Assembly (NCBI GenBank): GCA_964563495.1
Contig: CAZLYK010000003.1
Coordinates: 4,554 to 68,553 of the forward strand
Reading direction: 5' to 3'
Length of the DNA stretch: 64,000 bases
DNA from: an uncultured Heliobacteriaceae bacterium
GTDB taxonomy: Bacteria; Acidobacteriota; Blastocatellia; RBC074
Shown here: positions 18,526 through 59,743 of the stretch, piece by piece
Layout: each line of letters starts with the position of its first letter
How positions within the stretch are numbered: position 1 is the stretch's first letter
Translations under genes and position numbers: made by a program
Notes under the pieces: model-generated
What the model was told of the DNA's origin: nothing
Databases searched by the model: none
The model's input: only the letters and a program-made list of their open reading frames with translations

Positions 18526-19197
18526 ATGCATCAGGTTAATCTGGAGACCGATATGCTGGAGATGAATCAACATCTCGCCGAGGAGAACGCGGAGATCTTC
18601 CGGAAGCAGGGCGTTTTCGTCATGAATCTCATGTCGGCGCCGGGCGCGGGAAAGACATCGATCCTCGAACAGACGATTGGTCGGCTTAAGCAAGCTTGCC
18701 GGATCGGTGTGATCGAAGGCGATCTCGTCACGACCATCGATGCCGACCGGATCTCCGTACTCGGTGTACCTGCTTACCAGATAACTACCGGAACCGTCTG
18801 TCACCTGGACGCTCGAATGGTCCACAATGCGCTGCACACTTTTCCGATCAGCGGGTTGGACCTGCTGGTAATCGAGAATGTCGGCAACCTGGTCTGTCCG
18901 GCTGAGTTTAATTTGGGTGAAGATCTGAAAGTCATGGTCTACAGCGTAGTCGAGGGTGCCGAGAAGCCGATGAAGTATCCGGTCATGTTTCACGAAGCGG
19001 AGGCCGTCCTGCTCAATAAAATCGACCTCCTGCCTTATTCGGGCGTCAGCCTGGAAGATCTGCGGCGCAATGTACTCGCGGTCAACCCGCGCGCTCAGAT
19101 CATTCCCGTCTCCTGCCGAACCGGTGAGGGTGTCGATCAGTGGATCGACTGGCTGAAAGGAAGAATAGACAGGGTTAACCGGATTTCACCGGATTAA
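18526..19197 (+). CDS. hypB: Hydrogenase maturation GTPase HypB (short form without His-rich N-terminus)
   Basis: SAPGAGKTS P-loop and ENVGNLVCP motifs. The last 11 codons and the stop are encoded inside repeat element E3. Confidence 0.85.
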   Translation: MHQVNLETDMLEMNQHLAEENAEIFRKQGVFVMNLMSAPGAGKTSILEQTIGRLKQACRIGVIEGDLVTTIDADRISVLGVPAYQITTGTVCHLDARMVHNALHTFPISGLDLLVIENVGNLVCPAEFNLGEDLKVMVYSVVEGAEKPMKYPVMFHEAEAVLLNKIDLLPYSGVSLEDLRRNVLAVNPRAQIIPVSCRTGEGVDQWIDWLKGRIDRVNRISPD

Positions 19198-19263
19198 ACA
19201 GGATCAAAGGCAGCAGAAAAAATCCGGTTCAATCCGGTGAAATCCTGTCGATCCTGTCTATTT
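19164..19263. repeat. Palindromic intergenic element E3 (overlaps the hypB 3' end)
   Basis: AATAGACAGGG ... ATCCTGTCGATCCTGTCTATT with an internal inverted repeat ccggatttcaccggatt / aatccggtgaaatcc. Confidence 0.75.
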
Positions 19264-19311
19264 TTGATGATGAACACGAGTCCTCGATTACAACCCGGTG
19301 AGCGGTTGCGA

Positions 19312-21579
19312 ATGGTGATCCGCGGCGCGGTGCAGGGAGTTGGCTTTCGCCCGTTTATCTATCGCCTGGCGACCGGATTGGGGTTATCGGGATGGGTCAG
19401 GAATTCGTCACAAGGAGTCTTGATAGAGGTCGAGGGTGCGAGGGAGAGGTTGGAGGCTTTTTTGCTGGGGATCGAGAGGGAGAGGCCGCCGCGGTCATTC
19501 ATTCACAGCCTCGAATCGGCTTTCCTGGATCCAGTGGGATTGACCGGTTTCAAAATCCTGGAGAGTGCCGAGAGCGGCGCAAAGACCGTCCTCGTCCTGC
19601 CCGACATCGCGACTTGTCCGGATTGCCTGGGTGAAGTCTTCGATCCCGCTGACCGCCGCTATCTTTATCCATTCACCAATTGCACCAACTGCGGGCCGCG
19701 TTTCAGCATTATCGAAGCCCTGCCGTATGACCGCGTGAACACGACCATGAAGAAATTCACCATGTGTCAGGCATGTGCGGCAGAGTACCATGATCCGCTC
19801 GATCGAAGATTCCACGCGCAGCCGAATGCCTGTCCCGAGTGCGGTCCTCAACTGGAGTTGTGGGACAGGGCAGGAAAGATTCTCTCCCGGCGCGGTGCGG
19901 CGCTGATCGGGGCCGCCGAGGCGATCCGCCGCGGCGAGATCGTGGCGGTCAAGGGGTTGGGCGGATTTCATCTGATGGTCGACGGCCGCAACCACGCGGC
20001 GATCGATCGGTTGCGACGGCGCAAGCATCGTGAAGAGAAGCCGTTTGCGCTCATGTGCCCGTCGGTCAAACAGATTGAGAGTAACTGCCGGGTCTCAGAG
20101 ATCGAGCGCCGTCTATTGCTTTCGCCGGAATCGCCGATCGTCCTGCTCGAACGAGCATCGACAATTCCAAATCGCCACTCAGCCATCTCCAGGTCGGCAG
20201 CCCCGGGGAATCCGTATCTCGGCGTCATGTTGCCGTATACGCCGCTGCACCATCTGCTGCTCTCAGAGCTCGACTTTCCGATCGTGGCGACGAGCGGCAA
20301 TCTGACCGATGAGCCGATTTGCACAGACGAACTGGAGGCGCTCGAAAGGCTGAGCGGGATCGCGGACCTGTTGCTGGTTCATGATCGGCCGATTGCGCGG
20401 CATCTGGACGATTCGATCGTCCGCGTCATGGCCGGCCGTGAGCTGGTCATGCGTCGCGCCCGCGGGTATGCGCCGCTGCCGCTTCATTTAAGTCAAGCCA
20501 TGCCGCCGGTGCTCGCCACCGGCGCAGATTTGAAGAGCGCGATTGCGATCTCGGTCGGGAATGATGTCTTCATCAGCCAGCACATCGGCGACCTGGAAAC
20601 CGCGCCGGCTGATGAGGCCTTTCGGCGAGTCACCGAAGACTTTGAAAAGCTCTACGATTTCCAGCCTTCCCGTGTCGCGTGTGATTTGCATCCGGATTAC
20701 CGCTCGACCAGGTTCGCCGAATCTCTGGGGAGGAAGGTCGAGCATATTCAACATCATTGCGCGCACGTCGCGGCGTGTATGGCCGAGAACGAGATTTGGG
20801 GGTCGGCGCTGGGTGTCGCCTGGGACGGAACCGGATACGGGCTGGACGGGACCATCTGGGGCGGCGAGTTTTTGCAGGCCGCCGGCGGGGATTTTCATCG
20901 TGTCGCGCATCTTCGTACTTTCCCGCTGCCCGGTGGCGAGAGAGCCGTGAGGGAGCCGCGCCGGATTGCAATCGGGATGCTCTATCAAATCTACGGCGCC
21001 CGGCTGTTCGAGATGGAGGACCTGGCGCCGCTCAAAACATTGACTACTCACGAGCGCGGAATCCTGCGGACCATGCTGGAGCGCAAGGTCAATACGCCGC
21101 TGACCTCGAGCGCCGGCCGGCTCTTCGATGCCGTGGCCGCGATCACGGGCCTGCGCCAGACAGCCAGGTTCGAGGGGCAGGCCGCGATGGAGCTGGAATT
21201 TGCGCTCGGAGGCATGATCGACAATGAGACCTATCCATTCGAGATCGGGCCCGAAACGGGGCCGGGTTCTGCCGGAGTGATCGATTGGGAACCGATGATT
21301 CGCGCGATCCTGGATCACGTCGCTGACCATATTTCGATCGCTCAGATCTCGGCGCGCTTTCACAACACGCTGGTCGAATCGATCATCGCGGTCGCGCGAT
21401 TGACGGGCGAAGAGCGGATTTGCCTGTCCGGAGGCTGTTTTCAGAACAGGTATCTGACCGAGAGGGCAATCTCTCGTTTGCGCGAGGTCGGCCTGCGTCC
21501 TTACTGGCACCAGCGCATTCCGCCCAACGATGGAGGGATTGCGCTCGGCCAGGTTGTCGCGGCCGCTGGGATAATCTGA
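19312..21579 (+). CDS. hypF: [NiFe]-hydrogenase maturation carbamoyltransferase HypF
   Basis: Acylphosphatase domain (VQGVGFRPF), two CxxC...CxxC zinc fingers, a YrdC-like domain and a Kae1-like domain. The start is taken at MVIRGAVQG; an upstream ATG at 19267 is also possible. Confidence 0.9.
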   Translation: MVIRGAVQGVGFRPFIYRLATGLGLSGWVRNSSQGVLIEVEGARERLEAFLLGIERERPPRSFIHSLESAFLDPVGLTGFKILESAESGAKTVLVLPDIATCPDCLGEVFDPADRRYLYPFTNCTNCGPRFSIIEALPYDRVNTTMKKFTMCQACAAEYHDPLDRRFHAQPNACPECGPQLELWDRAGKILSRRGAALIGAAEAIRRGEIVAVKGLGGFHLMVDGRNHAAIDRLRRRKHREEKPFALMCPSVKQIESNCRVSEIERRLLLSPESPIVLLERASTIPNRHSAISRSAAPGNPYLGVMLPYTPLHHLLLSELDFPIVATSGNLTDEPICTDELEALERLSGIADLLLVHDRPIARHLDDSIVRVMAGRELVMRRARGYAPLPLHLSQAMPPVLATGADLKSAIAISVGNDVFISQHIGDLETAPADEAFRRVTEDFEKLYDFQPSRVACDLHPDYRSTRFAESLGRKVEHIQHHCAHVAACMAENEIWGSALGVAWDGTGYGLDGTIWGGEFLQAAGGDFHRVAHLRTFPLPGGERAVREPRRIAIGMLYQIYGARLFEMEDLAPLKTLTTHERGILRTMLERKVNTPLTSSAGRLFDAVAAITGLRQTARFEGQAAMELEFALGGMIDNETYPFEIGPETGPGSAGVIDWEPMIRAILDHVADHISIAQISARFHNTLVESIIAVARLTGEERICLSGGCFQNRYLTERAISRLREVGLRPYWHQRIPPNDGGIALGQVVAAAGII

Positions 21580-21581
21580 AA

Positions 21582-21630
21582 AATAGACAGGATCGACAAG
21601 ATTTCAAAAGAGATTAAACAGGGATAGAAC
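21582..21630. repeat. Truncated (left-half) copy of the palindromic element, E4
   Basis: AATAGACAGGATCGACAAGATTTC with no matching right terminus. It begins 3 nt after the hypF stop. Confidence 0.55.
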
Positions 21631-21654
21631 CTGGCATTGAGGGGAAACAGGAAA

Positions 21655-22782
21655 ATGACCGGAGTTTTGCCAAATCAGCGGCCGATTGACCAGATCGATC
21701 CCGATCATTTGGAGCGGATCAAGGGGCTCAAGCACATGATCGGAAACACGCCACTGCTGGCGATCAATTTTAAGTTCAGAGGCCGGCCGCGCGTCGTCTA
21801 CGCCAAAGCCGAAAATCTCAATCTGACCGGCAGCATCAAGGATCGCATGGCCTATCACATTTTAAAGAGGGGGTATCAGGAAGGCATGATCCGGGAAGGC
21901 GACACGATCGCGGAGGCGACCAGCGGAAACACCGGCATCTCATTCTCGGCGATCGGACGCGCGCTTGGGCACCGGGTGGTGATCTTCATGCCCGACTGGA
22001 TGAGCCAGGAGCGAGTCGCTTTGATTCGCAGCCTGGGGGCGGAGATCGTGCCGGTCAGCCGGGAGGAAGGCGGTTTCCTGGGCAGCATCAGGAAGACCGA
22101 GGCCCTGGCGAGTGGCGAAGATCGCGTCTTCCTGCCCCGCCAATTTTCGAATGAGGCGAACGTCGAGGCCCATGAGCAGACGACCGGCCCCGAGATCTGG
22201 TGGCAGCTCAACCATCTCGGGCTCGCGCCGGATGTCTTTGTCGCCGGGGTCGGCACCGGGGGGACGATCATGGGAGTCGGTCGCTATCTGCGCGACCGGC
22301 GGCCCTCAATCCGCCTGCACCCGGTCGAGCCGGCCGAGTCGCCGACTCTCTCGACCGGCCACAAAGTCGGCCAGCATCGGATTCAGGGCATCTCCGATGA
22401 GTTCATCCCATCTATTGTAGAGCTCGATCAACTCGATCATGTCATCGGCGTCAACGATGGCGACGCGATTCTCATGGCGCAGAATCTGGCGAGCTGTCTG
22501 GGTCTGGCAGTCGGCATCTCCTCCGGGGCCAATTTTATCGCCGCCTTGATCGCGCAGAACGAGCTCGATGAAGATGCCGTCGCCGTCACCGTCTTCCCGG
22601 ACAGCAACAAAAAATATCTGAGCACCGACCTGCTCAGAAGCGAGCCGGTCAGGGATGGCTATCTCTCGCCCGAGATCGAGTTGATCAGTTACCGGTCGTT
22701 CAAACGCGTCTGCAGCACCTGCTACGACCTGGACGACGTGCTGCAGACCTACCTGATCAACCAGCCCAGAGGGGTCAGTTGA
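21655..22782 (+). CDS. Cysteine synthase / cystathionine beta-synthase family PLP-dependent enzyme with a roughly 60-aa C-terminal extension
   Basis: GSIKDR PLP-lysine motif; SGNTG and GxGTGGT glycine-rich loops. The substrate cannot be assigned from sequence. Confidence 0.75.
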
Positions 22783-22804
22783 TCAGGAGAATCGGGATTC
22801 ATCT

Positions 22805-23983
22805 ATGTTTAAAGAAGCAACCGTCAGACAATTGAAGAGAGAGGAATTTCAGCGCGAGCTCGGGCGTTATGGCGGGATCGTTCCCGGACCGCTGGTGATC
22901 TGCATTGGCGGAATTCACGGCAACGAACCGGCCGGCGCGCGGGCGTTGCAAAACGTGCTGGCGGATCTCCAGGCGGCCAGGCCGGCTTTCAACGGTGAGT
23001 TTGTGGCGCTGGCGGGAAATCTGGGGGCGCTCAATCAGGAGACCCGTTATCTGCTTCGCGATCTAAATCGCATGTGGTTACCCGACCAGGTCGAGCGGCT
23101 CAAATCCGAATCGTTGAGCGGTTCCGAAGAAGCCGAATACCTGGAACAGCGAGAATTGCTGGCGGCGATCGAATCGGTGATTGCCGGTCGAACGGGTAAT
23201 CTGATCTTTCTTGATCTGCACACGACATCGTCGGACGGGGCCCCCTTTGCGCTGATCAGCGACACGCTGGTCAACCGGCATCTGGCCATGAGGCTCGGCG
23301 TGCCGATCATCCTTGGCCTGGAAGAGAACATAGAGGGGACGATCCTCAATTACATCAACGAGCTCGGATTTGCGGCGATCGGGTTTGAGGCCGGCCAGCA
23401 CCAGGCGCCGTCGTCGGTCAAACATCACGAAGCCGTGATCTGGCTGGCCCTGGTCGAAGCCGGATGTCTCGCCCCGCAGCGGGCTCCGGAGCCGGCGGCT
23501 TTAAGGTCCGGCTTGAAAAAAGCCGTCAACCGGATCCCCCGGGTCATGGAGGTTCGTTATCGACACGCGATTCAGGAATCCGATCAATTTGTTATGCGGC
23601 CGGGGTTCACCAATTTTCATCCGGTCGAAAAATCGCAACCGCTGGCAAGCGACCATCTGGGCGAGGTGAGGTCCCCGGAGGATGGATTGCTGTTTATGCC
23701 GCTCTACCAGAAATTGGGTGAGGACGGCTTTTTCCTGGTCCGTCAGGTCAACACCTTCTGGCTGAAAGTTTCTGAATACATGCGGCGGCTCAAATTTGAC
23801 CGGGTCGTGCCGTTTTTACCCGGCGTCGATTATCTGCCCGGGCGGCGTGACGCCCTGGTCATCGACACACGGATCGCCCGCTGGTTTGTCATTGAAATTT
23901 GCCATCTGCTCGGTTTCCGCAAACACTCTCAAGTCGAGGGAAGGCTGGTAGTCAGCCGCAGACGGCAATCTCCCGAAGATTAA
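22805..23983 (+). CDS. Succinylglutamate desuccinylase / aspartoacylase family zinc hydrolase (M14-like deacylase)
   Basis: [10 protein letters not shown] zinc-binding motif. AGGAGA RBS. Confidence 0.7.
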
Positions 23984-24005
23984 GGAAACGGAGGCATTCA
24001 TATTT

Positions 24006-25643
24006 ATGTTACCGATACGAAAAATAGCCGATCAGCTCAACCTCTCGGATGACCATCTGGTCTATTACGGTGAGCATACGGCCAAGTTGAAATTGGATCT
24101 GCTGGACGAATCAAGGAAGCCGAATCGCGGGAAGTTGATTATGGTCACGGCGATTACCCCGACCAGCCATGGTGAAGGGAAGACGGTGGTCTCGATTGGG
24201 TTGGCGCAGGCTATCACGCGCTGCGGCAAGACGGCGCTGGCGACGCTGCGCGAGCCTTCACTCGGGCCGGTCTTCGGTTTGAAAGGCGGCGCGACCGGTG
24301 GCGGTAAGGCGCAGGTGCTGCCGGCCGAGAAGATCAATCTGCATTTCACCGGAGATTTTCACGCGATCACGTCGGCTCATAACCTGCTGGCCGCAGTGAT
24401 CGACTCACACTTACACCACGGCAACGAATTACGATTCGATGTCGACAACGTCTTCTGGCCGCGAGCCATGGATATGAACGACCGGGCACTGAGACATATC
24501 ATCGTCGGGCTTGGCGGGAAGATGAACGGAGTGCCGCGCGAGACCGGGTTCGTGATCACCGCCGCTTCGGAGGTCATGGCGATTATGGGCCTGGCCAAAT
24601 CGCGTCATGATTTGCGGCGGCGGCTCGACGAGATAGTGGTCGGTTTCAACCTCGACGGCCAGCCGATACGCGCTCGCGATCTGCACATCACCGGCGCCTT
24701 GATGGTCCTGCTCAATGAGGCGATCATGCCCAACCTGGCGCAGACCACCGAAGGCACACCGGCGCTTGTCCACACCGGCCCGTTTGCCAACATCGCGCAC
24801 GGGACGAGCAGCGTTATCTCCCAGATGATGGCCATGAGGCTCGCCGATTACGTCGTCAACGAATCGGGTTTCGGCGCGGAACTGGGGGCGGAGAAATATT
24901 TCGATATAGTCATGCCGCATTCGGGCCTCAAGCCCTCGGCCGCGGTTCTGATCGCCACCGTCCGCGCGCTGGCTTCGCACGGCTCGACGCCGGATAATCC
25001 CAGCGAGGTGAGTGCCGCAGCGGTGCAGAGGGGGTTGGCCAACCTGGCCAAGCACCTGGAAAACCTCCGCAAATACAAAGTCCCCGTGGTCGTCGCGATC
25101 AATCGCTTCAACACGGATACCGATGATCAGATTGAAGTGATTCGCGGCTTCTGCCGTGAAGCGAGGGTCGAATCGGCAGTCGTAGAGGTCTATAATCAAG
25201 GCGGCGAGGGGGCGATCGAACTGGCTGAAAAGGTCATGGCGATCGCTGAAAAAAGCCGCCCGGAAGAGGTCACGCCGATCTATCATTCGGACATGAGCCT
25301 GGAAGAGAAGATCGGACGGGTAGCCACGGAGATCTACGGCGCCAGCGGCGTTAACATCGAGTCTGAAGCGCGCAAGAAGCTGAAGAAGTTCGCCTCGCTC
25401 GGGTTCGGTCACTATCCGATCTGCATGGCCAAGACCCAGTCGTCTTTGACCGACAATCCGAAGCTGCTCGGCGCTCCATCCGGATGGACACTGACCGTCT
25501 CGGACGCCCATCTTTCGGCCGGGGCCGGCTTCGTCGTCGTCGTCGCCGGATCGATGATGTTGATGCCGGGGCTGCCAAAAGTGCCCCAGGCCGGCAAATT
25601 GGACGTCGACGGGCACGGCGCGATTACCGGGATGAATTACTGA
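24006..25643 (+). CDS. fhs: Formate--tetrahydrofolate ligase (formyl-THF synthetase)
   Basis: PTSHGEGKTVVSIGL P-loop region and overall length typical of FTHFS. Confidence 0.9.
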   Translation: MLPIRKIADQLNLSDDHLVYYGEHTAKLKLDLLDESRKPNRGKLIMVTAITPTSHGEGKTVVSIGLAQAITRCGKTALATLREPSLGPVFGLKGGATGGGKAQVLPAEKINLHFTGDFHAITSAHNLLAAVIDSHLHHGNELRFDVDNVFWPRAMDMNDRALRHIIVGLGGKMNGVPRETGFVITAASEVMAIMGLAKSRHDLRRRLDEIVVGFNLDGQPIRARDLHITGALMVLLNEAIMPNLAQTTEGTPALVHTGPFANIAHGTSSVISQMMAMRLADYVVNESGFGAELGAEKYFDIVMPHSGLKPSAAVLIATVRALASHGSTPDNPSEVSAAAVQRGLANLAKHLENLRKYKVPVVVAINRFNTDTDDQIEVIRGFCREARVESAVVEVYNQGGEGAIELAEKVMAIAEKSRPEEVTPIYHSDMSLEEKIGRVATEIYGASGVNIESEARKKLKKFASLGFGHYPICMAKTQSSLTDNPKLLGAPSGWTLTVSDAHLSAGAGFVVVVAGSMMLMPGLPKVPQAGKLDVDGHGAITGMNY

Positions 25644-25677
25644 CCGATCTGTTTTCGTTATCGTAGGAGCAACTCTT

Positions 25678-25929
25678 ATGTGTCTTGCTGTTCCGGGAAA
25701 CGTCGTCAGCATAGAGGGCGAGGACCTGCTCCGCCACGGTAAGGTAAATTTCGGCGGCATCGTCAAGCACGTCAATTTGAGCTACGTGCCGGAAGCGAAG
25801 ATCGGCGATTACGTGATCGTGCATGTCGGTTTTGCGATCAGTATCGTCGATCAGGCGGAAGCCGAACAGGTCTTCGAATTCCTGCGCTCGCTCGATGAGC
25901 TGTCTGAGCTTGAAGGGGAACCGCGATGA
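25678..25929 (+). CDS. hypC: Hydrogenase maturation chaperone HypC
   Basis: MCLAVPG N-terminus. Confidence 0.85.
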
Positions 25930-27029
25930 AGTTCATCGACGAATACCGCGACGCCGAATCTGCTCAGACCTGCGCCGAAGCCATTGCCGGACTGATCACC
26001 CGGCCCTGGACGCTCATGGAGGTCTGCGGCGGTCAGACGCATTCGATCGTCAAGTTCGGCATCGATGAGCTCCTCCCAGCTGAGTTGACGCTGGTCCACG
26101 GGCCCGGCTGTCCGGTCTGCGTGACCCCTCTCGAGCAGATCGATAAGGCGATCGAGATCGCTTCGCGCCCCGAAGTGATCTTCTGTTCCTTCGGCGACAT
26201 GCTGCGCGTCCCCGGCAGCGAGAAGGATCTCTTCATGGTCAAGGCGGCAGGCGGGGATGTCCGCGTAGTCTATTCGCCGCTCGATTGTTTGAAGATCGCG
26301 CGCGAGAATCCCGGCAGGATCGTCGTCTTTTTCGCGGTCGGGTTCGAGACCACGGCGCCGCCGAATGCGATGGTCGTATATCAGGCGCGCGAGCAGGGGA
26401 TCGACAACTTTTCGATCCTCGTTTCACACGTCCTGGTCCCTCCGGCGATGGAGGCGATCCTCTCTTCGCCGGGCAACCGCGTCCAGGGCTTTCTGGCCGC
26501 CGGCCACGTCTGCACGGTCATGGGCTATACCGAATATGAGCCGATCGCCGATAAGTACCGTGTGCCGATCGTCGTCACCGGGTTCGAGCCGCTCGATATA
26601 TTGCAGGGCGTGCTCATGTGCGTCCGGCAGTTGGAGGAAGGGCGGGCAGAGGTCGAAAACCAGTATGCCCGTTCGGTCAGACGCGAAGGTAACCAGCACG
26701 CCCAGAAGGTGATCAATCAGGTTTTCCGGGTCTCACCCCGCAAATGGAGGGGGATCGGCGAGATCCCGCAAAGCGGCCTGACTTTGAGCGAAGACTATGC
26801 CGAATTCGACGCCGAGCGCAGGTTCGGATTGACCGGTTACACCGCCGATGAGCCGTCCGAATGCATAAGCGGGTTGATCATGCAGGGCGTCAGGAAACCG
26901 CACGAATGCACGGCTTTCGGCTCACGGTGCACACCCGAAAAACCTCTCGGCGCGCCGATGGTCTCGAACGAAGGCGCCTGCGCCGCCTATTACCGATATC
27001 GACGGAACCTGGGAAATAGACAGGATTGA
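25926..27029 (+). CDS. hypD: Hydrogenase maturation protein HypD
   Basis: [13 protein letters not shown] and FEPLD motifs. The last four codons plus the stop (NRQD*) are encoded by repeat element E5. Confidence 0.9.
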
Positions 27030-27090
27030 CAGGATTTGACCAGACCTGATCTTGTTCAGTCCTGCATCGATCCGGTTGATCATGTCTATT
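27015..27090. repeat. Palindromic intergenic element E5
   Basis: AATAGACAGGATTGACAGGATTTGACC ... GATCATGTCTATT (right TIR slightly degenerate). Confidence 0.75.
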
Positions 27091-27109
27091 TTCTCGACGG
27101 GTCTTGATT

Positions 27110-28165
27110 ATGGCCGAAGATCTAGATTTCAACCTTTCGTGTCCGATCCCGATCGGGCAATACCCGCAGGTTTTGCTGGCTCACGGCGGGGGCGGCAAGC
27201 TCATGCATCAGTTGATCGAGCAAATGTTCGTCCCCGCCTTCGGCAATCCGTTGCTCGGCTCGCGCCACGACGGCGCGGTCCTGGAGATGAATGGCGCGAG
27301 ACTGGCATTCACCACCGACTCTTATGTCGTCCGCCCGATCTTCTTTCCCGGCGGCGACATCGGCACGCTGGCGATCAACGGCACGGTCAACGACCTGGCC
27401 ATGTGCGGAGCCCGGCCGCTCTATCTCAGCGCCGGCTTCATCCTGGAAGAAGGATTGCCGATGGAGTCGCTCTGGCGGATCGTGCAATCCATGCAGCGAG
27501 CGGCTGAAGAGGCCGGCGTACAGCTCGTCACCGGCGATACCAAGGTAGTCGATAAGGGCAAGGGAGACGGCATCTTCATCAACACGGCCGGCGTCGGCCT
27601 GATCGATCACGCACAGGTGATCGCGCCTGCGAGCGTCAGGGCCGGCGACGCCGTCCTGCTGAGCGGTGATCTTGGCCGCCACGGCATCTCGATTATGGCC
27701 ACGCGTGAAGGGCTGTCGTTTGAATCCGAGATCGAAAGCGATTGTGCGCCGCTCGCCGATCTGGTGCGCCGGATGATCGAGGCCGGGGTCGAGCTTCACT
27801 GCTTGCGGGATTTGACCAGAGGCGGTCTGGCCAGCGCCCTGGTCGAGATCTCCGAGGTTTCGGGGCTCCAGATCAGGATAGACGAAAACGCTATCCCGGT
27901 CCGTGAAGATGTCCGTGGTGCCTGCGAGATCCTGGGTCTGGACCCGCTTTACCTGGCCAATGAGGGCAGATTCGTTGTCTTTCTTCCGGCCACCCACGCC
28001 GACCGGGCGTTGGCAATCCTGACCGCGCATCCGCTCGGTCAAAACGCCGCGCTCATCGGGCGCGCCGAGCAGGGCTCATCGAATCATGTCCTGATCAGAA
28101 GCTCGATCGGCGCCCTCCGGATCGTCGATATGTTCAGTGGAGAGCAACTGCCGAGAATTTGCTGA
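27110..28165 (+). CDS. hypE: Hydrogenase maturation protein HypE
   Basis: AIR-synthase-like fold. C-terminal PRIC with terminal Cys (the carbamoylation/cyanation site). Confidence 0.9.
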
Positions 28166-28185
28166 ACTAATCCGCTCAACCCTGC

Positions 28186-28539
28186 CTACCTCTTCTTCGC
28201 TATCGCCTGCCCGGTGAATGCGCTCGCGTGCGCTTCATACTTCTCCTGCAAACTGGAACAGACCAGATCGCATAGCTCGAAGATCGATTCGTCAGCGATC
28301 GAATAATAGACCGTATTGCCTTCCTGTCGACGCCCAACCAGCCCGGCATCCTGCAAAATGCGCAAATGCTTGCTCACATTCGGCTGCGTCGATTCCACCT
28401 CGGCTGCAATCGAATTGACACTCATCCCTCCGCCTTCCAATACCTGCAGTATTCGCAGCCTCATCGGATCCGAAAGCACCTTGAACCGAGCCGCCACCAA
28501 TTGCAACGCCTCCATCGTCTTGATCAACTGCCTCTTCAC
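28186..28539 (-). CDS. ArsR/SmtB-family transcriptional regulator
   Basis: MRLRILQVL and QPNVSKHLRIL winged-HTH motifs. Divergent from the DUF302 gene. Confidence 0.8.
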   Translation of the reverse strand: MKRQLIKTMEALQLVAARFKVLSDPMRLRILQVLEGGGMSVNSIAAEVESTQPNVSKHLRILQDAGLVGRRQEGNTVYYSIADESIFELCDLVCSSLQEKYEAHASAFTGQAIAKKR

Positions 28540-28564
28540 TCTTTCGATCTTCCCTTTCTTTAAG

Positions 28565-28612
28565 ATGGTGCTTGACTATATGATTCTATAGTTATATAGT
28601 AATTAAGTCAAG
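28565..28612. promoter_or_regulatory. AT-rich palindromic candidate operator in the ArsR/DUF302 divergent promoter
   Basis: ttgactatatgattctatagttatatagtaattaagtcaa. It has outer TTGAC/GTCAA arms and inner CTATA...TATAG repeats. Confidence 0.4.
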
Positions 28613-28781
28613 AGAGACAAAAATAATTGATTCCGGCAAACGGAATTTTTTCGTGGTGGTGGTGAGAGGTGGCATAGGACGTGCAGTTAACTGAGATAAA
28701 TTACCGGCGTTGATGGTCTTTGAACATGAGGCGTAGCGAGCGAAATCATAAAATTCGCTGATGATTGAGAGGAATAAAGAT

Positions 28782-29201
28782 ATGAAGCAAGGAACGGGAA
28801 AGCAGAGTGTACGTGACATGGGCTATGGGATGAGCCGGGAGTTGGACATTTCATTTGCCCAGGCGGTTGAACGCACGAAGGAGGCGCTCAAGGCCGAGGG
28901 ATTCGGCGTGCTGTTTGAAATCGACATGAGGGAGAAGATGAAGGAGAAGCTGGGGCTGGATTTTCGCAACTATATTATTTTGGGGGCGTGCAATCCGCCG
29001 ATTGCGTATCAGGCGTTGCAGGAGGAGATCGGTTTGGGTTTGTTGCTGCCGTGCAATGTAGTGGTGTACGAAGAGGGTGGTAGATCTGTGGTTGCGGTGA
29101 TCGATGCCGAGAAGATGATGTCGATCGTGGGTAACCCCAAGCTGGGGACAGCCGCCGCGCAGGTCAACGAGAAACTTGATCGGGCTCTGGCCAGTCTATA
29201 A
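28782..29201 (+). CDS. DUF302 domain protein
   Basis: Start at MKQGTG after GAGAGGA. Family assignment is by overall similarity and is moderate. Confidence 0.55.
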
Positions 29202-29229
29202 CTCAAATAAAATTTGAAAGGAGAAAGTC

Positions 29230-29439
29230 ATGACCGTTGAAAGGGCACTCAGGCTGATTGCGGGCACTTTTGTTTTGGCGTCTTTACTGTTGGGTATTTA
29301 TCACAGCCCGAACTGGTTCTATTTCACCGGCTTTGTCGCCCTCAACCTAATCCAGTCGGCCTTTACCAACTGGTGCCCGATGATGGCGTTCCTGCGTTGG
29401 ATTGGGCTCAAGGATGAAGGGCAGCCGCGCCTGGTCTAA
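29230..29439 (+). CDS. DUF2892 (YgaP-like) small membrane protein
   Basis: 69 aa with two TM segments and a NWCP motif. Confidence 0.55.
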   Translation: MTVERALRLIAGTFVLASLLLGIYHSPNWFYFTGFVALNLIQSAFTNWCPMMAFLRWIGLKDEGQPRLV

Positions 29440-29613
29440 AGACCGTTCTGCCTGTGAAATCTTCCCATTAAAGCGTGCGGGCGCCCAGGCGTTGGGTGAT
29501 TTTTCGCAACGGTGCCTGGGCGTCATAATTGGAATTTGTTCTATCTGATCGCCTGATAATCTATGGCATCTTTTTTGCGTGATTGACCAAGATGACGAGT
29601 TGGAGTTTGGTTA

Positions 29614-29640
29614 AATCCTGCAAAGATCATGTCTATTCTG
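29614..29640. repeat. Solo right-end fragment of the palindromic element, E6
   Basis: AATCCTGCAAAGATCATGTCTATTCTGCC resembles the right termini of E1 and E5. Confidence 0.5.
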
Positions 29641-29703
29641 CCTGTTGTCGGTCGTTTAATTAGGTGATGGATGGGAAATGAGGGCTAAAAAGGGACGAAA
29701 GCG

Positions 29704-31095
29704 ATGATAGCCAAAACCAGGAAGAATATTTCGATGGCGCTCGTAGTTTGGCTGTGTTTGTGGGGGACGGGATTTGGTTTGATGGCGGGTGCGCAGTCCC
29801 AGGGATCTGTCGGATCCGATGGTCTGAGATTGCCGGTGGCGGTGGAGATAGCTTTGCGGGGTAATCCGCTGGTGCGGGCGAGCGCGTCGGGCCGGGAGAT
29901 GGCGGATGCGCAATTGAGCGAGGAGAGATCCGCCCGTTTGCCGGTTTTACAGTTCAGTGAAAATTTCATACGCAGTAACAATCCGGTCTTCGTTTTTGGC
30001 TCGCTCCTGGAGCAGGCCCGTTTCGGGGCGAGCAACTTCGCTCTGCCGGGGCTCAACAATCCGGATTCGCTGAGTAATTACCGGACGGCGCTGACTCTCA
30101 AGATGCCTGTCTTCGATCAATGGCGATCATCGACCCGGATCAACCAGGCGAAATTCTTGCAGCGGCAAGCCGAGGCTCAAACCGATCAGGTGCACCAGCA
30201 GCTTCGATACGAGGTTCTCAAGTCTTTTTACGGTGTCCTGCTGGCGGAGGCCGGAAAAGAGGTCGCCGACGAGGCTGTCAAGCTTGCTCAAGCCGATATC
30301 AAGCGGAGCCGCGATCGGATGGATGCGGGAGTTGCAGTGGCTTCGGATCTGCTCGCGGCGGAGGTGCAGTTGGCCGAATTCAGGCAGCAGCAGATTCAAG
30401 CCGAGGGAGAGATAGTGACCGCGAGAGCCGCGCTCAATACCGTCCTGGGATTGCCGATCGAGACACCGCAAAAGATCGCCGGCGAGCTGGCCGAGAAGAC
30501 CTTCAGCGTCAGTGTCCAGGATGAACTGATGGAAGAGGCATTGCGGCATCGCCCGGATTATTCGCGTGCCGGGTTGGCTCTCAGTTCGAGCCGTGAGGGG
30601 GTGAGGGCCGCTCGCGGCGAGAACCTGCCGCGGTTCGACGTCTACACCAGTTTTGGGACGAGTGGGCGCAATCTATGGAGCGGGAGCGGGGATTATCTGG
30701 TCGGCGCCAGCCTGAGCTTCAATCTGCTGGATTTCGGGCGGTCGGCGCGGATCAACCGCGCGCGCGCGGCCGAGACCATGGCGATGAGCGAGCAGCAACA
30801 TCTGGCCAACCAGATCCGGTTGGAGGTAGTTCGCGCCAATCAACAGTACCTGACGGCACGTGAGCGGCTGGTCGTCGCCGGCCGCGTGATCAACCACGCG
30901 ACCGAGGCCCTGCGGATCGTGCAGGATCGCTACAACGAGGGGCTGACCACGATCACCGAAGTCCTGCGCGCTGAGACTGCTCTGGTTCGCGCTCGCCTCA
31001 ACCTGCTCACAGCCCGTTACGATCATTATCTGGGCTATGCCGGTGTGTTGCTGGTGACCGGAAGACTGACCGATGTGCAACCGTTTGTTTCCTGA
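29704..31095 (+). CDS. Outer membrane efflux protein (TolC-like OMF)
   Basis: Signal peptide followed by two OEP repeats with coiled-coil segments. Confidence 0.75.
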
Positions 31096-31109
31096 GATCC
31101 GGATGGGGG

Positions 31110-32318
31110 ATGAAGATGAAGAAGAAAATTGCCCTGATCACAACCATCGCGATCTTTTCAATCGTCGCAGCCTCGTGCTCAAAAAAAGAGAAGGCTTCGA
31201 GCGAGAAGGCGCCGGTTGTTAAAGGCGCAGAGTTGGAGAAAGTCGCGGCTTCAACGATCGGCGATTATATCGAGGCGACGGGGACCGTACGCTCAAAGAC
31301 CACGACCGTGCTCTCATCGAAGATTATGGGAACCGTGATTTCATTGCGCGTCCGCGAAGGAGACAGAGTCGGAGCCGGTCGGACATTGATCGAGATCGAC
31401 AACCGGGATGCGGCGGCGCAATTGCAGAAAGTGCAGGCCGGGTTGCGAGAGGCGCAACAGGCGCTGGCTGAGGTCGAGCAATCATCGAGCGCCGCCCAAT
31501 CGGCGAAGAATGCTGCTCAAGCCAACCGGCGTTTGGCCGAGACTACTTTGAACCGCTACCAGATGCTGCTCGATCGAAAATCCGTCAGCCCCCAGGAGTT
31601 CGACGAAGTGAAGGCGAAGTACCAGGTGGCTGAAGCCGAGGCCGAGCGCGCCGACAAGATGCTGCAGATGGTCGCCGCGAAAAAGAATCAGGTTCTGGCG
31701 CGGATCGATCAGGCCAACGCCGAGATCGCCAACGCCCAGGTCTATCTCGGTTACGCCCGGATCGCCTCGCCGATGAGCGGCGTGGTGACGACCAAACAGA
31801 TCGAGCTGGGAGCAACGGCCATGCCGGGAGCGCCTCTGCTGACGATCGAAGACGGGGCCCATTACCGCCTCGAGGCGGCGGTCGAAGAATCCCGGATCGG
31901 AAAGATCCGCCTCAACGACAAGGCCTTGGTTCGGATCGACGCGATCGGACCGGAGGAATTCGATGGGGTGGTGGCCGAGATCGCCCCCGCGGCCGATCCG
32001 GCCAGTCGCAGCTACTTAGTCAAGATAGATATTCGCTCGCCGAAAGCCCAGTCGATGCTGCGTTCGGGGCTTTACGGCTCCGTGCGGTTCGCAGCCGGGC
32101 AGAAGCAGGTTCTGACGATTCCGCAAAAGGCCGTGATTCAGCACGGCCAGTTGATCGGTGCCTTCGTCGTCGACGACGCCGGCGTCGCGCGCTTGCGGTT
32201 GATCAAACCCGGGAAGAGATACGGTGAACGGGTAGAGGTGCTCTCGGGGTTGAATGATGGCGATCGCATTGTCGTCGACGGCGTCTCAGGCGTGAGCGAT
32301 GGCAGTCGAGTGCAGTGA
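31110..32318 (+). CDS. RND efflux periplasmic adaptor (membrane fusion protein)
   Basis: Lipoprotein-like N-terminus, coiled coil, and beta-barrel/MP domains typical of the HlyD/AcrA family. Confidence 0.8.
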
Positions 32319-32334
32319 TAAAAAAGGGGGAATT

Positions 32335-32709
32335 ATGACTACCCTGAAATATGATACGTTTTTCAATCTGGACGCCCTTTCGCTGATCGCCAAAGGGCTG
32401 AGCCTGATCAGCATTCTGATCCTCGCGCTTTTCTTTATCGGCGAAGGGTTCAATCCATCGAAGATTCAGCTCAATGAATGGATCCTCTTTCTCTTCTTTC
32501 CGTTCGGCCTGATTACCGGGATGGTTGTCGCCTGGTGGAAAGAGGGGCTGGGCGCGATGATCGCGGTCGGCAGCCTGGTCGGATTTTACCTGGCCCATTT
32601 TCTGCAGACCGGAGGGCTGCCGCGCGGATGGGCCTTTCTGGCCTTTGCCGTGCCCGGATTTCTGTTTCTCGTCCATTGGCTGATAACCAGGTTCAATCGA
32701 CAGGATTAA
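32335..32709 (+). CDS. Small four-TM membrane protein of unknown function
   Basis: Start MTTLKYDTFF after AAGGGGGAA. The last 5 codons plus the stop (FNRQD*) are encoded by repeat element E7. Confidence 0.4.
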   Translation: MTTLKYDTFFNLDALSLIAKGLSLISILILALFFIGEGFNPSKIQLNEWILFLFFPFGLITGMVVAWWKEGLGAMIAVGSLVGFYLAHFLQTGGLPRGWAFLAFAVPGFLFLVHWLITRFNRQD

Positions 32710-32777
32710 CAGGATTTCAACAGGATTAAACCGGATGGTTTTCCATCTTGCTTTTGATCCGGTTAACCCTGTCTATT
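32695..32777. repeat. Palindromic intergenic element E7
   Basis: AATCGACAGGATTAACAGGATTTCAACAGGATTAAACCGGAT ... ATCCGGTTAACCCTGTCTATT. Confidence 0.75.
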
Positions 32778-32807
32778 TCCTGCTTTGATCTGTTCAGGTG
32801 AATAGTT

Positions 32808-36092
<3,285 letters not shown>

Positions 36093-36234
36093 TGGTGATT
36101 GAGAAATGAGCGATTAGGTAGACTCTGTCTGATTCAAGAAAAAGATTAATTGCCAAGAGAGCCAAGGATTAGTTTGTTTCGGTCTTGGCGATTAATCCCT
36201 CATTTAATTGTATTCTCTCAAAAGGGGGGACTAG

Positions 36235-36921: not shown

Positions 36922-36962
36922 AATTTTACTGACCGCCGGCCTTAGCCGGTAAGGAGAAGGTT

Positions 36963-37505: not shown

Positions 37506-37538
37506 TGCGATAAACTTTATCCTATTTCGCCCTTAATA

Positions 37539-37586
37539 CGGTTTTCAGAGTCGTCCGTCCTGTCAGACGCACGACTCTGAAAACCG
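37539..37586. repeat. Solo core hairpin of the element family (type II core), E14
   Basis: cggttttcagagtcgtccgtc CTGTCAGA cgcacgactctgaaaaccg. The loop carries the TGTCAG motif. Confidence 0.55.
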
Positions 37587-37603
37587 CGCTCATCTCAGTT
37601 GTT

Positions 37604-40724: not shown

Positions 40725-40768
40725 ACAAAACCACCCTGTAGTGTTGAGCTACAGGGTGGTTTTGTTTT
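40725..40768. terminator. Bidirectional rho-independent terminator
   Basis: aaaaccaccctgtagtgttgagctacagggtggttttgtttt. It lies between convergent genes. Confidence 0.7.
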
Positions 40769-40771
40769 AAC

Positions 40772-47195: not shown

Positions 47196-47329
47196 AATAG
47201 ACAGGATTGACAGGATTTGTGCAGGATTAAACAGGATTATTGGAAAAAGGTGTGGTTGGGATAACCTCTATCATGCCTATATTGATCATCCTGTTTAATC
47301 CTGCACAAATCCTGTCAATCCTGTCTATT
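47196..47329. repeat. Palindromic intergenic element E9 (longest copy; 42-bp perfect TIRs and a 50-bp unique core)
   Basis: AATAGACAGGATTGACAGGATTTGTGCAGGATTAAACAGGAT ... ATCCTGTTTAATCCTGCACAAATCCTGTCAATCCTGTCTATT. The tatC stop codon lies inside the right TIR. Confidence 0.85.
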
Positions 47330-54564: not shown

Positions 54565-54658
54565 AAATAGACAGGATTAACAGGATTTTCACAGGATTAA
54601 ACAAGATCAAAGACAAACCAAAGAAGCATCCTGTGAAAATCCTGTTAATCCTGTCTAT
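54565..54658. repeat. Palindromic intergenic element E10 (32-bp perfect TIRs)
   Basis: AATAGACAGGATTAACAGGATTTTCACAGGAT ... ATCCTGTGAAAATCCTGTTAATCCTGTCTATT. Confidence 0.85.
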
Positions 54659-55623: not shown

Positions 55624-55643
55624 TCAAATCATCGGACAGAATT

Positions 55644-55707
55644 GGACAGGGAGTAAAAAAAGACGGAGCAAGATTTTCTTGCTCCGTCTTTTTTTACTCC
55701 CTGTCCA
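55644..55707. terminator. Bidirectional rho-independent terminator
   Basis: Perfect hairpin ggacagggagtaaaaaaagacggagcaag attttctt gctccgtctttttttactccctgtcc between convergent genes. Confidence 0.75.
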
Positions 55708-55714
55708 TTCATGG

Positions 55715-56764
<1,050 letters not shown>

Positions 56765-56840: not shown

Positions 56841-58772
<1,932 letters not shown>

Positions 58773-58981
58773 CAAATCGAATTTAGTGATGAGAAAATAG
58801 CCGCTCGCAATAGATCTTGAGGTTCTCTCAAGGCACACTGCCGCTCACATCAGTCGGCCACAGGAGCCCTTGTCCAGAGCAATCTTGATGCGATTTCGGA
58901 AGTTATCTAAAGAGAGGCGGACTGTAACAGATTGGCTGGGTGCTGTCAAAAACTATTTTCCGGACCCTCCGGCTCGCTGTT

Positions 58982-59095
58982 ATTCGACTGAAATCGAATG
59001 GGTTACAGCGGTTTTTCAGTTTCGTGCGTCTGACAGGACGCACGAAACTGAAAAACCGCTGTAACCCTGCAAACGTCCCGTTAATTCTGTCTATT
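58982..59095. repeat. Palindromic intergenic element E12 (type II core hairpin plus right TIR)
   Basis: 28-bp stem ggttacagcggtttttcagtttcgtgcg / cgcacgaaactgaaaaaccgctgtaacc with loop TGACAGGA, then AATTCTGTCTATT. Confidence 0.7.
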
Positions 59096-59743
59096 GTCTG
59101 CTTCGATAATTTCCAATCTGCGCCACTGCCTGCGCAGTTGCAGAACTTCGTCCGCCAGTTCGCTCAACTGAGCTTTGATCTTTGTCCCGTCTTCCAGCCC
59201 GACAAGGTGGGGGTAACGACGTGGGAGGGCCAGTTGGCGAACCGGCTCGCGAGCCGTCGCCGGAACACGGGTGATCATTTGATAAATTCGAAATTCCGCC
59301 GGTCCCAGATCTCGCTTGACCCATCTGAGGATCCTGCCTATTTCGGGGTCGCATTCGGAGACGGCATTGAGTAAAGCGCTGCAGATGAAGGCAGCGCAGA
59401 AGACCGTCTTGCCGAATTTGTTGTTTGGATCGCAACCCTGCGAGCCGATCACGCGGCAGGTTGGTGGACAGCAGCCCGTACCCTGTTCGTGGCAGCGGCG
59501 GCAGATCTCGAGAACGCCGCTTGCGGCAAAGAACCGGTCGAGTTCTGCGATCAGTTCATGGCGGGTGATCTCCCCGGGCGTTTCGGCTCTCTGGTATCGC
59601 TCATCTCTGGCGCAGCGCGGACAGAGCACAAAATCGCTCTCCTCGTGCGGTTCACCGCGGGGCGCAAGAGTGTAAAGCCGATACCGGCGGGCGTTTGCCG
59701 CACCGCAGGATTGGCAGGTTCCATCCTGTTTGAGTAAGACCAT
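59081..59743 (-). CDS. Cysteine-rich hypothetical protein (zinc-ribbon plus CxxC...CC cluster)
   Basis: CQSC...CPRC and CRRCHEQGTGCC motifs. The last codons and stop (NRQN*) are encoded by element E12. Confidence 0.4.
   Translation of the reverse strand: MVLLKQDGTCQSCGAANARRYRLYTLAPRGEPHEESDFVLCPRCARDERYQRAETPGEITRHELIAELDRFFAASGVLEICRRCHEQGTGCCPPTCRVIGSQGCDPNNKFGKTVFCAAFICSALLNAVSECDPEIGRILRWVKRDLGPAEFRIYQMITRVPATAREPVRQLALPRRYPHLVGLEDGTKIKAQLSELADEVLQLRRQWRRLEIIEADNRQN

Follow-up and report, generated by a model that had tools for sequence, protein, structure and literature searches.

Why should genes for unrelated proteins end in similar short tails? The question is raised by a 64-kb stretch of a Blastocatellia-like acidobacterial contig (hereafter the window), in which five verified genes, namely hypB, hypD, tatC, a DUF7670 membrane protein gene and the gene for a conserved Cys-rich protein, stop inside the terminus of a palindromic repeat present in 13 copies of about 59-132 bp each (Table 1). 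Six further copies begin 3-18 nt past a stop codon. All five tail-bearing ORFs are real genes; hypB, hypD, tatC and the DUF7670 gene match Pfam families, and homologues of the Cys-rich ORF reach E values as low as 7.5e-63. The original prediction that five genes draw their stop codon or last residues from such elements is borne out by the sequence, including the DUF7670 and Cys-rich tails and the tatC stop, although its hypB tail needs two adjustments. This tail starts at 19162 rather than 19164, and both orthologues and solved HypB structures can still be aligned through R213 and I214 of HypB (AGA ATA), so the element-derived part is about nine residues and not all 11. Two other ORFs with a stop in an element were discounted, one (6-536, +) because it runs antisense to a multihaem cytochrome c gene and one (61770-62093, -) for want of supporting evidence.

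Table 1. Elements and element-derived gene ends in the window (asterisk, stop codon).
Feature	Coordinates	Strand	Details
hypB tail RIDRVNRISPD*	19162-19197	+	AGA ATA GAC AGG GTT AAC CGG ATT TCA CCG GAT TAA; E3 left arm
hypD tail NRQD*	27015-27029	+	AAT AGA CAG GAT TGA; E5 terminus
DUF7670 membrane protein tail FNRQD*	32692-32709	+	TTC AAT CGA CAG GAT TAA; E7
tatC stop TAG	47325-47327	-	AAA TAG; E9 right terminus
Cys-rich protein tail ADNRQN*	59081-59101	-	GCA GAC AAT AGA CAG AAT TAA; gene 59081-59743; E11
E1	533-628	.	nested hairpin 536-614; 9 nt past stop of cytochrome c gene 638-1057 (-); 38 nt ahead of multihaem cytochrome c gene start
E2	7266-7348	.	18 nt past stop of cytochrome c gene 7367-7795 (-)
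E3 (ATAG...CTAT)	19165-19261	.	between hypB and hypF; hairpin with flanks 19161-19265; 44-nt arms, 84% complementary; predicted RNA fold -54.3 kcal/mol, z -8.6
E4	21583-21632	.	left arm alone; 3 nt past hypF stop (TGA 21577-21579)
E5	27016-27089	.	between hypD and hypE; arms decayed
E6	29609-29636	.	right-terminus remnant
E7	32696-32776	.	between DUF7670 gene and RND pump gene
E8	38563-38628	.	11 nt past amidohydrolase gene stop
E9	47197-47328	.	best preserved copy; between convergent genes; left gene stop 4 nt before E9; 50-nt arms, 98% complementary; predicted RNA fold -88.7 kcal/mol, z -16
E10	54567-54658	.	7 nt past 3-dehydroquinate synthase gene stop
E11	58990-59094	.	right terminus alone retained (59068-59094); nested second hairpin family at 59000-59067
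E12 (short)	59782-59840	.	between GMC oxidoreductase gene and Cys-rich gene
E13	61688-61773	.	with nested second hairpin family; 48-nt arms, 94% complementary

The repeat is a small, multi-copy element without coding capacity. Its arms, which begin AATAGACAGGATT, consist of three to four phased ACAGGAT(T) modules, direct sub-repeats of about 10 bp that share this core, and two such arms in inverted orientation flank a variable loop that holds no ORF. Its abundance is far above chance: ATAGACAGGAT at no more than one mismatch is matched 29 times in the window against 0.64 expected, a number attained by none of 100 shuffles. Terminal inverted repeats are present (arms of 17-50 nt, 81-100% complementary), and the outer boundary is sharp, falling after the first A of AAT(A/G)GACAGGATT. 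Copies run from perfect through decayed to half elements, a range that fits the neutral decay of a selfish insert.

Comparison with other members of four of the families bears directly on the origin of the tails. None of 278 homologues ends in element-type residues (0/119 for HypD, 0/119 for HypB, 0/31 for DUF7670 and 0/9 for the Cys-rich protein), so the refutation named with the original prediction did not materialize. Each family is instead conserved up to the junction and followed by a variable tail: HypD right to the junction, HypB to ...WLK.RI., DUF7670 to ...PGFLFL..WL. and the Cys-rich protein to ...EVLEIRRxW. Judged from these orthologues, the element tail appears to have replaced a native C terminus, as originally proposed. 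The HypB and HypD ends do differ from those of orthologues, but the practical effect of the tails is probably nil, since the Pfam domains and the regions aligning to solved structures (2wsm, 2hf8, 2z1d) are complete in both. The window offers five orthologue-controlled examples of a repeat re-capping genes while leaving conserved cores untouched. Deposited HypD (367 aa), HypB (223 aa) and DUF7670 proteins already bear element tails, and ORF callers can choose a start codon that lies within it (GTG 19237 for hypF is one case); the repeat should be masked when C termini are compared or families built from such genomes.

The same junctions can be inspected in three relatives (L114, L115 and L116) whose HypD is 81-83% identical. 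Their hypD-hypE spacers are 3-18 nt long and lack the element, against 80 nt in the window, and the hypB-hypF spacers of L115 and L116, the two with hypB, are 6-12 nt long and likewise element-free, against 70 nt. L116 carries one copy elsewhere, 38 nt past hypE, so the family is present in this lineage at different sites. The search for an empty site at the nucleotide level found none, the nearest database HypD being 84% identical and from no close strain. In-silico excision that keeps one AT yields a 369-aa HypD with TGA 2 nt before the hypE ATG, as in the relatives; it also leaves a clean ancestral junction for the DUF7670 gene, an ambiguous one for hypB and an implausible one for tatC. Taken with the variable tails of the families, the short unoccupied junctions indicate that the elements look like insertions into, or just past, dispensable gene 3' tails.

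Placement follows a consistent pattern. Every copy lies 3' of a gene and several lie within operons, where the next start is 6-31 nt beyond the element. In nine of the ten scorable co-directional junctions, the element is nearer the upstream stop (from inside the gene to 18 nt away) than the downstream start (6-150 nt). The same terminus occurs, with a patchy distribution, in at least eight phyla, and its carriers include cultured Chromatiaceae and Pelotomaculum. Across 216 termini from other genomes it is conserved over about 22 nt, with information content rising abruptly at position -1, where A is found in 77%; outside the element there is only a weak A-rich signal at -11 to -2 (0.2-0.4 bits per position). 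Position +2 is A or G, often unlike between the two ends of one element. In these genomes, 17 of the 97 termini with a same-direction ORF contain the stop of that ORF (10 at TAG, 7 at TRA) and a further 22/97 ORFs stop 2-20 nt ahead of the terminus, counts that come from a crude longest-ORF gene call and into which a stop-rich terminus also brings truncated spurious ORFs. When this ORF set is restricted to those of at least 150 codons, about 3.6 stops per nt fall between -8 and -2 and about 1.5 per nt between -24 and -9, and stops on the boundary read TGAatag, TAAtag and TGAaatag. Stops in all three frames are no commoner in the element than in shuffled sequence, so they are a by-product of composition, not design.

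We think it probable that this is a non-coding, MITE-like foldback element whose insertions are tolerated at gene 3' ends and purged when they fall deeper. Insertion would have placed copies either in the tight gaps between genes of compact operons or within a gene's final few codons. Of the three frames entering the terminus, two would reach a stop almost immediately, the TAG of ATAG adding zero residues and the TGA or TAA of GGATT[G/A]A giving ...RQD*, and the third would stop in many copies of this genome at GGATTAAAC, giving ...DR.NRISPD*. An insertion at a 3' end would therefore exchange a non-conserved tail for 0-9 element-encoded residues and a stop, leaving the conserved domain whole, and such an insertion could survive. 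Those deeper in genes, or in ribosome-binding sites and promoters on the downstream side, would be lost to selection. Clustering at stop codons is probably reinforced by a bias of the element towards A-rich sequence immediately beyond its end.

That bias could, on its own, set the position, with an enzyme recognizing A-rich sequence ending in AAT and selection playing a minor part, which we consider possible but doubtful, although the data are compatible with a target preference as well as with a tolerated-insertion filter. In a genome of 56% G+C, sequence of this kind occurs mainly at or just after stops (TAA, TGA A...), the A at -1 and the A enrichment lie outside the sharp boundary, stops pile up on that boundary in other genomes, and the AGA ATA of hypB encodes orthologue-aligned residues, such that the target already resembled GAAGAAT. 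However, the A-rich signal is weak, and the flanks in Blastocatellia pair with each other in inverted orientation (GAAGAAA...TTTCTTC), extending the hairpin, and could be decayed element ends instead of target. Alternatively, the hairpins may be kept for a role in RNA, as 3'-end stabilizers, RNase III sites, weak terminators or devices for translational coupling, the stop in the stem being functional in that a terminating ribosome would melt the stem and free the start of the next gene. Predicted folding of the RNA hairpins is very favourable (-26 to -89 kcal/mol, z -4 to -17), the stop sits at the base of the stem, and the position 3' of genes and close to the next start within operons would suit such a role. 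An intrinsic terminator has a G+C-rich stem with a U tract directly behind it; here the stem base is A/U-rich, and the tails after the hairpin read UAUUUCUUC or UAUUUUUGA. Liang, Rudd and Deutscher reportedly found in 2015 that REP sequences placed about 15 nt or less from a stop lower expression through ribosome stalling. Correia elements are also RNase III substrates in mRNA (PMC2649163). We nevertheless find an RNA role unlikely: many copies are decayed, one-armed or asymmetric, with arm identity averaging 0.63 within a copy versus 0.55 between copies, the relatives run the same operons without the element, and a patchy cross-phylum distribution is typical of selfish DNA. A terminator scan of 18001-38000 (requiring a 3-8 nt loop and 5 or more T among the next 8 bases) listed none of the four of 13 copies it covered, although its loop limit excludes most of these hairpins.

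Two further readings have almost nothing in their favour. Were the shared tails a conserved C-terminal peptide motif or a product of chance, they would not owe their sequence to the element; but the five proteins are mutually unrelated, the homologue comparison refutes the idea, and the same nucleotides run on into a palindrome that also occurs away from any ORF. The chance that the palindromes are integron attC-type sites marking gene cassettes is similarly negligible. What speaks for it is that attC sites are imperfectly palindromic, measure 60-140 bp and frequently overlap the stop of the ORF before them. Yet the genes around the copies belong to conserved operons (hypA-B-F-C-D-E and an RND pump operon) and keep the order found in relatives, the termini read AATAGAC...GTCTATT and not RYYYAAC/GTTRRRY, and the window mixes co-directional and convergent genes with no cassette-array organization.

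How such an element might move is a separate matter. Most DDE transposons leave a variable target-site duplication. The check for flanking duplications proposed with the original prediction turned up no variable one: in 84 complete elements, direct repeats of 2-8 bp did not exceed a permutation control at boundary offsets from -4 to +4. The AT, which is palindromic and invariant, could belong to the inverted repeat or represent a duplication of fixed 2-bp length. A survey of 89 loci found no autonomous parent that combines these ends with a transposase, no transposase or other protein family recurs inward of 38 unpaired termini, and the subset of window ORFs scanned against Pfam included no Y1 transposase. 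Conservation of a non-coding terminus of about 40 nt across phyla points to a widely shared mobilizing or binding protein. When bacterial MITEs were clustered at 95% identity in a 2024 census, no cluster mixed phyla (PMC11602168). We found no description of the family by sequence search of papers, in Rfam or in a limited keyword search on bacterial MITEs. A speculative reading, to which we give little weight, is that the ACAGGAT-module foldback element is an undescribed family, perhaps kin to Correia, that has spread horizontally over at least eight phyla and moves without variable duplication; on this reading, the target may be a fixed AT, or the hairpin may transpose as a single strand. In that case the enzyme behind Correia-type movement could be sought through the cultured carriers.

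Several known repeats invite comparison. Drosophila FB elements also have inverted arms of short tandem sub-repeats; they are eukaryotic and much longer, and the likeness is a structural analogy only. REPs and REPINs, which are mobilized by RAYT transposases encoded by a single-copy gene flanked by the repeats, are, like the present element, intergenic palindromes after genes without target duplication and with a conserved tetranucleotide at the hairpin foot, which in REPs is GTAG or CGTC (PMC3733652). The present repeat does not fit the REP unit, as the tag here is ATAG/ATGG and, whereas a REP unit is an imperfect palindrome of 20-40 bp, the present arm is made of direct ACAGGAT sub-repeats, is not self-complementary and cannot fold alone.

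Correia elements (CREE/NEMIS) share with the present element a palindromic form of 70-160 bp beside genes, an mRNA hairpin and the fact that the mobilizing enzyme is not known for either. The Correia terminus reads TATAG[CT]GGATTAACAAAAATCAGGAC (PMC2649163) and the present one AATAGACAGGATTAACAGGAT, with ATAG and GGATTAACA in common. This partial match to the 26-bp repeat TATAG[CT]GGATTAA... is only suggestive, its score being reached by 7-21 of 2000 shuffles for the closest pairs of variants and by 50-198 of 2000 for the remainder (frequency 0.004-0.1). The Correia likeness drawn in the original prediction does not extend to the 26-bp terminal repeat or the TA duplication: Correia duplicates TA, whereas TA at both ends occurs in 31/84 of the present elements, no more than in permutations. 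Correia also has a defined core and is found in Neisseria alone, in contrast to the variable loop, modular arms and many phyla seen here.

Repeats overlapping gene 3' ends are already documented. RU-1 and ERIC (IRU) are joined to gene 3' ends past the conserved domain, as in the E. carotovora amidase ECA3499 (Delihas 2007, PMC2759123), and there too the native stop is removed and element-encoded residues are added; however, some 35 residues are added by RU-1 through its long open frame, translation into the present element usually ends within 0-9, and the sequences are unrelated. In Coxiella burnetii, the small hairpin MITEs QMITE1 and QMITE2 overlap the last 1-50 bp of many functional genes, among them ubiB, pntAA, mutT, nagZ, kdgK, ogt, recN and ruvB, and in the Dugway strain EnhC takes its C-terminal residues from a QMITE and stops immediately after it (Wachter et al. 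2018, PMC5896051). The phenomenon is the same as here, but the sequences are unrelated, QMITE2 has copy-unique direct repeats whereas the present element has no variable duplication, and QMITEs are limited to one genus. It is the terminus shared across phyla that is less expected.

Allowing no more than one mismatch, the window has 29 occurrences of ATAGACAGGAT where 0.64 would be expected, a count reached in none of 100 shuffles, and these matches group into 13 copies (E1-E13) of a palindromic repeat, the ACAGGAT element. A complete element spans 59-132 bp and has two inverted arms flanking a variable loop, each arm made of three or four direct sub-repeats with the core ACAGGAT(T) at 9-11 bp spacing (arm consensus AATAGACAGGATT-rACAGGATTT-caCAGGATT-AAACAGGAT). 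E9 is near perfect (50-nt arms, 98% complementarity) and E10 and E13 are also well preserved, while E5, E7, E8 and E12 are decayed and asymmetric and E4, E6 and E11 are one-armed remnants. Folded as RNA, the copies are predicted to form hairpins with free energies between -26 and -89 kcal/mol (z between -4 and -17), with stop codons in the stem base because the stem takes in flanking purine and pyrimidine runs. Compensatory evolution of the arms, considered as a sign of selected structure, was not convincing: many copies are asymmetric, and arm identity within a copy (0.63) is barely above that between copies (0.55), which offers no support for strong selection for pairing. Rfam gave no match in the window at the gathering threshold, the window has no tRNA genes, and a terminator consensus scan of 18001-38000, which holds 4 of the 13 copies, listed none, its 3-8 nt loop limit excluding most of these hairpins. 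Across 84 complete elements from the window and from loci in other genomes, terminus position +2 usually differs (A or G) between the two ends (AATA...CATT 17, AATG...TATT 12, G at both ends 1); with unequal ends, the RNA of one strand would have a G-U pair there, and the palindrome a hidden polarity.

The original prediction held that elements supply the stop codon and last residues of at least five genes, having inserted into their 3' ends. All five listed tails are present in the sequence, confirming that these gene ends are read from the element.

Gene ends read from ACAGGAT elements in the window
Gene	Position	Strand	Codons	Tail
hypB	19162-19197		AGA ATA GAC AGG GTT AAC CGG ATT TCA CCG GAT TAA	RIDRVNRISPD*
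hypD	27015-27029		AAT AGA CAG GAT TGA	NRQD*
Small membrane protein (DUF7670)	32692-32709		TTC AAT CGA CAG GAT TAA	FNRQD*
Cys-rich protein	59081-59101	minus	GCA GAC AAT AGA CAG AAT TAA	ADNRQN*
tatC	47325-47327 (stop)		AAA TAG	

Four of these genes have Pfam matches: HypB (cobW domain, residues 32-193 of 223), HypD (13-359 of 367, full profile), TatC (17-321 of 351) and DUF7670 (30-132 of 136). A library of 1.8 billion proteins contains homologues of the Cys-rich ORF with E values as low as 7.5e-63. Two further candidates for element-capped genes were set aside: ORF 6-536, which is antisense to a multihaem cytochrome c gene, and ORF 61770-62093, which lacks supporting evidence.

In every case compared, the element-read tail starts at the point where family conservation stops. 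The 119 closest HypD orthologues are conserved through a common 12-residue stretch followed by 0-30 unrelated residues, none ends in NRQD, and the alignment with the solved Thermococcus kodakarensis HypD (2z1d) reaches residue 358. Similarly, 119 HypB orthologues are conserved through ...WI.WLK.RI and then carry variable tails of ~3-25 residues, none ending in anything like DRVNRISPD. As solved HypB structures (2wsm, 2hf8) align through residues 214-215, R213 and I214 (AGA ATA) are still native-like; the predicted 11-residue hypB tail is present, but its element-derived part is ~9 residues. Conservation extends through ...PGFLFL..WL in DUF7670 homologues and through ...LADEVLEIRRxW..E in the Cys-rich family, with variable sequence beyond. 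Four HypD orthologues (P0018, P0022, P0030 and P0033) have long, odd tails (...PPSGGRP..PEGG... and ...TEEFGEFTTETPRTQSSEKGL) that look like read-through into other repeat families, and the effect may therefore be general in soil genomes.

No strain is close enough for a base-level empty site, the best HypD match being 84% identical; we therefore compared junctions in three relatives (L114-L116) whose HypD is 81-83% identical. Between the hypD stop and the hypE start these relatives have 4, 18 and 3 nt and the window has 80 nt; between hypB and hypF the distances are 6 and 12 nt versus 70 nt, and neither junction carries an element in the relatives compared. One of them, L116, has a typical copy at a different site, 38 nt past hypE, with the same GAAAAGAAAA/TTTCTTCTTTC flanks; the other two have no copy within 16-21 kb. 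When E5 is deleted in silico and a single AT retained, HypD becomes 369 residues long, with 2 nt separating its TGA from the hypE ATG, an arrangement like that in the relatives, whereas the other two removal rules fuse hypD with hypE or run through it. Keep-one-AT removal at DUF7670 gives a 136-residue protein; removal is ambiguous at hypB (a 13-residue tail overlapping hypF, or WLKGRF* with a TGATG overlap after full removal) and implausible for tatC. An empty site was also sought between two loci in other genomes, L004 and L011, which are 92% identical, and both have an ACAGGAT copy at the same place. These two loci differ only in the presence or absence of other palindromes with ~9-bp modules (CGCAAAG, AGCAAG) at gene junctions (L004 2730-2841 and 6535-6645). 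Loci L006 and L009 have the gene end ...APF* in common, with the L006 element directly after the stop and downstream DNA that is not comparable. With unoccupied junctions in relatives and none of 278 homologues sharing an element-read ending, the evidence supports the proposal that element insertion replaced the 3' tails of these genes.

All 13 copies are intergenic, leaving every conserved domain uninterrupted. Five reach into the 3' end of a verified gene and six start 3-18 nt past a stop (E1 9, E2 18, E4 3, E8 11, E9 left side 4 and E10 7 nt); the downstream start, where placeable, lies 6-150 nt past the element. Of 10 co-directional junctions that could be scored, 9 have the element closer to the upstream stop than to the downstream start. 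Such asymmetry is expected where ribosome-binding sites and promoters have to stay intact, and also if the element prefers A-rich sequence at or after stop codons. The longest ORFs of hypF (GTG 19237) and of a lactamase/rhodanese gene (TTG 38573) begin inside elements; for hypF, the N termini of relatives favour ATG 19268, which lies only 6 nt past the element and lacks a Shine-Dalgarno sequence outside that element. Between hypF and hypC (21637-25643) lie three unrelated genes, including one for a PLP-dependent enzyme, with half-element E4 at the break, and hypC directly follows hypF in L114-L116. Two cytochrome c paralogues on the minus strand (638-1057 and 7367-7795) end in ...VRELAKK(K)*, with an element copy 9-18 nt beyond each.

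Other palindromes are found nearby. An unrelated hairpin family (ACAGCGGTTTTCACGTTTGTC...) is nested centrally in E1, E11 and E13 (536-614, 59000-59067 and 61700-61760) and stands alone at 37539-37586, upstream of an amidohydrolase gene. Further long, nearly perfect intergenic palindromes lie at 12385-12469, 12507-12572, 40718-40772, 7774-7818 and 55643-55707, the last between convergent genes and starting with TGGACAGGG, which resembles the ATGGACAGG variant of the ACAGGAT terminus. A palindrome of GCCAAG/CTTGGC modules sits just past an RND pump stop (36130-36200), and the same modules come after an ACAGGAT arm in L009 (3190-3290), suggesting that several module-built repeat families coexist and combine.

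The exact 23-mer AATAGACAGGATTRACMGGATTT occurs at at least 89 loci in at least eight phyla. Among the matches listed, hosts include Gammaproteobacteria (Thiobaca trueperi DSM 13587, Allochromatium warmingii DSM 173, Sulfuricaulis and Ca. Muproteobacteria), Betaproteobacteria, Chloroflexota, Acidobacteriota (Blastocatellia, Pyrinomonadaceae), Armatimonadota, Planctomycetota, Bacillota (Pelotomaculum), Bacteroidota and Desulfobacterota, with cultured carriers that include T. trueperi, A. warmingii and Pelotomaculum propionicicum. Copies elsewhere are palindromes too, 40-350 bp long, in which the arms are the same and the loops unrelated. Compared over 216 termini, the element has a sharp boundary: 77% have A at position -1, conservation is strong at positions 0-21, and the sequence outside shows only weak A-enrichment. 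For the 97 termini that have a same-direction ORF, crude longest-ORF calls place the stop of that ORF inside the terminus in 17 (10 at TAG, 7 at TGA/TAA) and 2-20 nt before it in a further 22, counts that are approximate because the stop-rich terminus cuts spurious ORFs too; automated calls of genes entering termini, by GC3 or longest ORF, are too error-prone for exact rates. Stops crowd right onto the boundary in other genomes (TGAatag, TAAtag, TGAaatag). The sole plasmid record found by BLAST, from Ca. Thiodictyon syntrophicum, has no annotation under the match. The strict 23-mer matched no IMG/VR viral contig; the looser pattern TAGACAGGATTNACAGGAT matched 24 (L090-L113), mostly in the form of the variant TTAGACAGGATT, and often with one arm alone.

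The original prediction also suggested checking for target-site duplications flanking each copy. In 84 complete elements, none of 2-8 bp rose above permutation controls at any boundary offset, and the sole sequence shared at both boundaries is an invariant, self-complementary AT. Around E5 an apparent TCGACGG repeat, isolated and asymmetric, was treated as chance. TA at both ends occurs in 31 of the 84, no more than in permutations, arguing against mariner/Correia-type TA duplication. Among the matches listed, no parent transposon was found: the only long terminus pair was a 750-bp composite (L051) crowded with other repeats, and unpaired termini have no recurrent protein family beside them. 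It is this combination, a terminus conserved across phyla with no variable target duplication, that gives the family its value for follow-up.

We propose, as the most likely explanation, that the ACAGGAT element is a selfish, MITE-like foldback element that spread within the lineage and whose copies would persist only at low-harm sites, such as the few bases between packed genes or dispensable last codons. Early stops are frequent in two frames (TAG in 64% and TRA in 58% of 246 termini) and the third stays open over 60 nt in more than half. With two entry frames stopping immediately, and the third often within 11 codons, a gene entered by an element would be re-capped with 0-9 foreign residues. 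Three-frame stops as a conserved design were rejected, occurring within 33 nt in 14.6% of the 246 termini versus 15.0% of composition-matched shuffles. Insertions may also be drawn to the surroundings of stop codons by a bias towards A-rich sequence that ends in AAT; the tolerance filter and this bias may both contribute to placement. A functional RNA role is possible, whether in RNase III processing, in 3'-end protection or in ribosome-dependent melting that couples translation of the next gene, but it is not needed to account for the data and is weakened both by decayed copies and by relatives without the element.

Among known systems, the Correia element is nearest in form. Its terminus, TATAG[CT]GGATTAACAAAAATCAGGAC (PMC2649163), has ATAG and GGATTAACA in common with that of the ACAGGAT element, a likeness that is only suggestive, as the best pairs have scores reached by 7-21 of 2000 shuffles, and its TA duplication is not seen here. 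The arms consist of direct sub-repeats rather than self-folding units, so the element does not qualify as a REP/REPIN, and gene content excludes attC sites. In a 2024 census of MITEs, no bacterial cluster at 95% identity was reported to mix phyla (PMC11602168). We found no description of the ACAGGAT family in Rfam or, by sequence string or keyword, in open-access text, where sequence strings matched only unrelated primers and keywords returned precedents for the phenomenon and none for the family itself. Repeats overlapping gene 3' ends are already documented: in Coxiella, many functional genes have their last 1-50 bp overlapped by QMITE1 or QMITE2, one copy providing the C terminus of EnhC (PMC5896051), and enterobacterial RU-1/ERIC repeats are fused to gene 3' ends past the conserved domain, with the native stop removed (PMC2759123).
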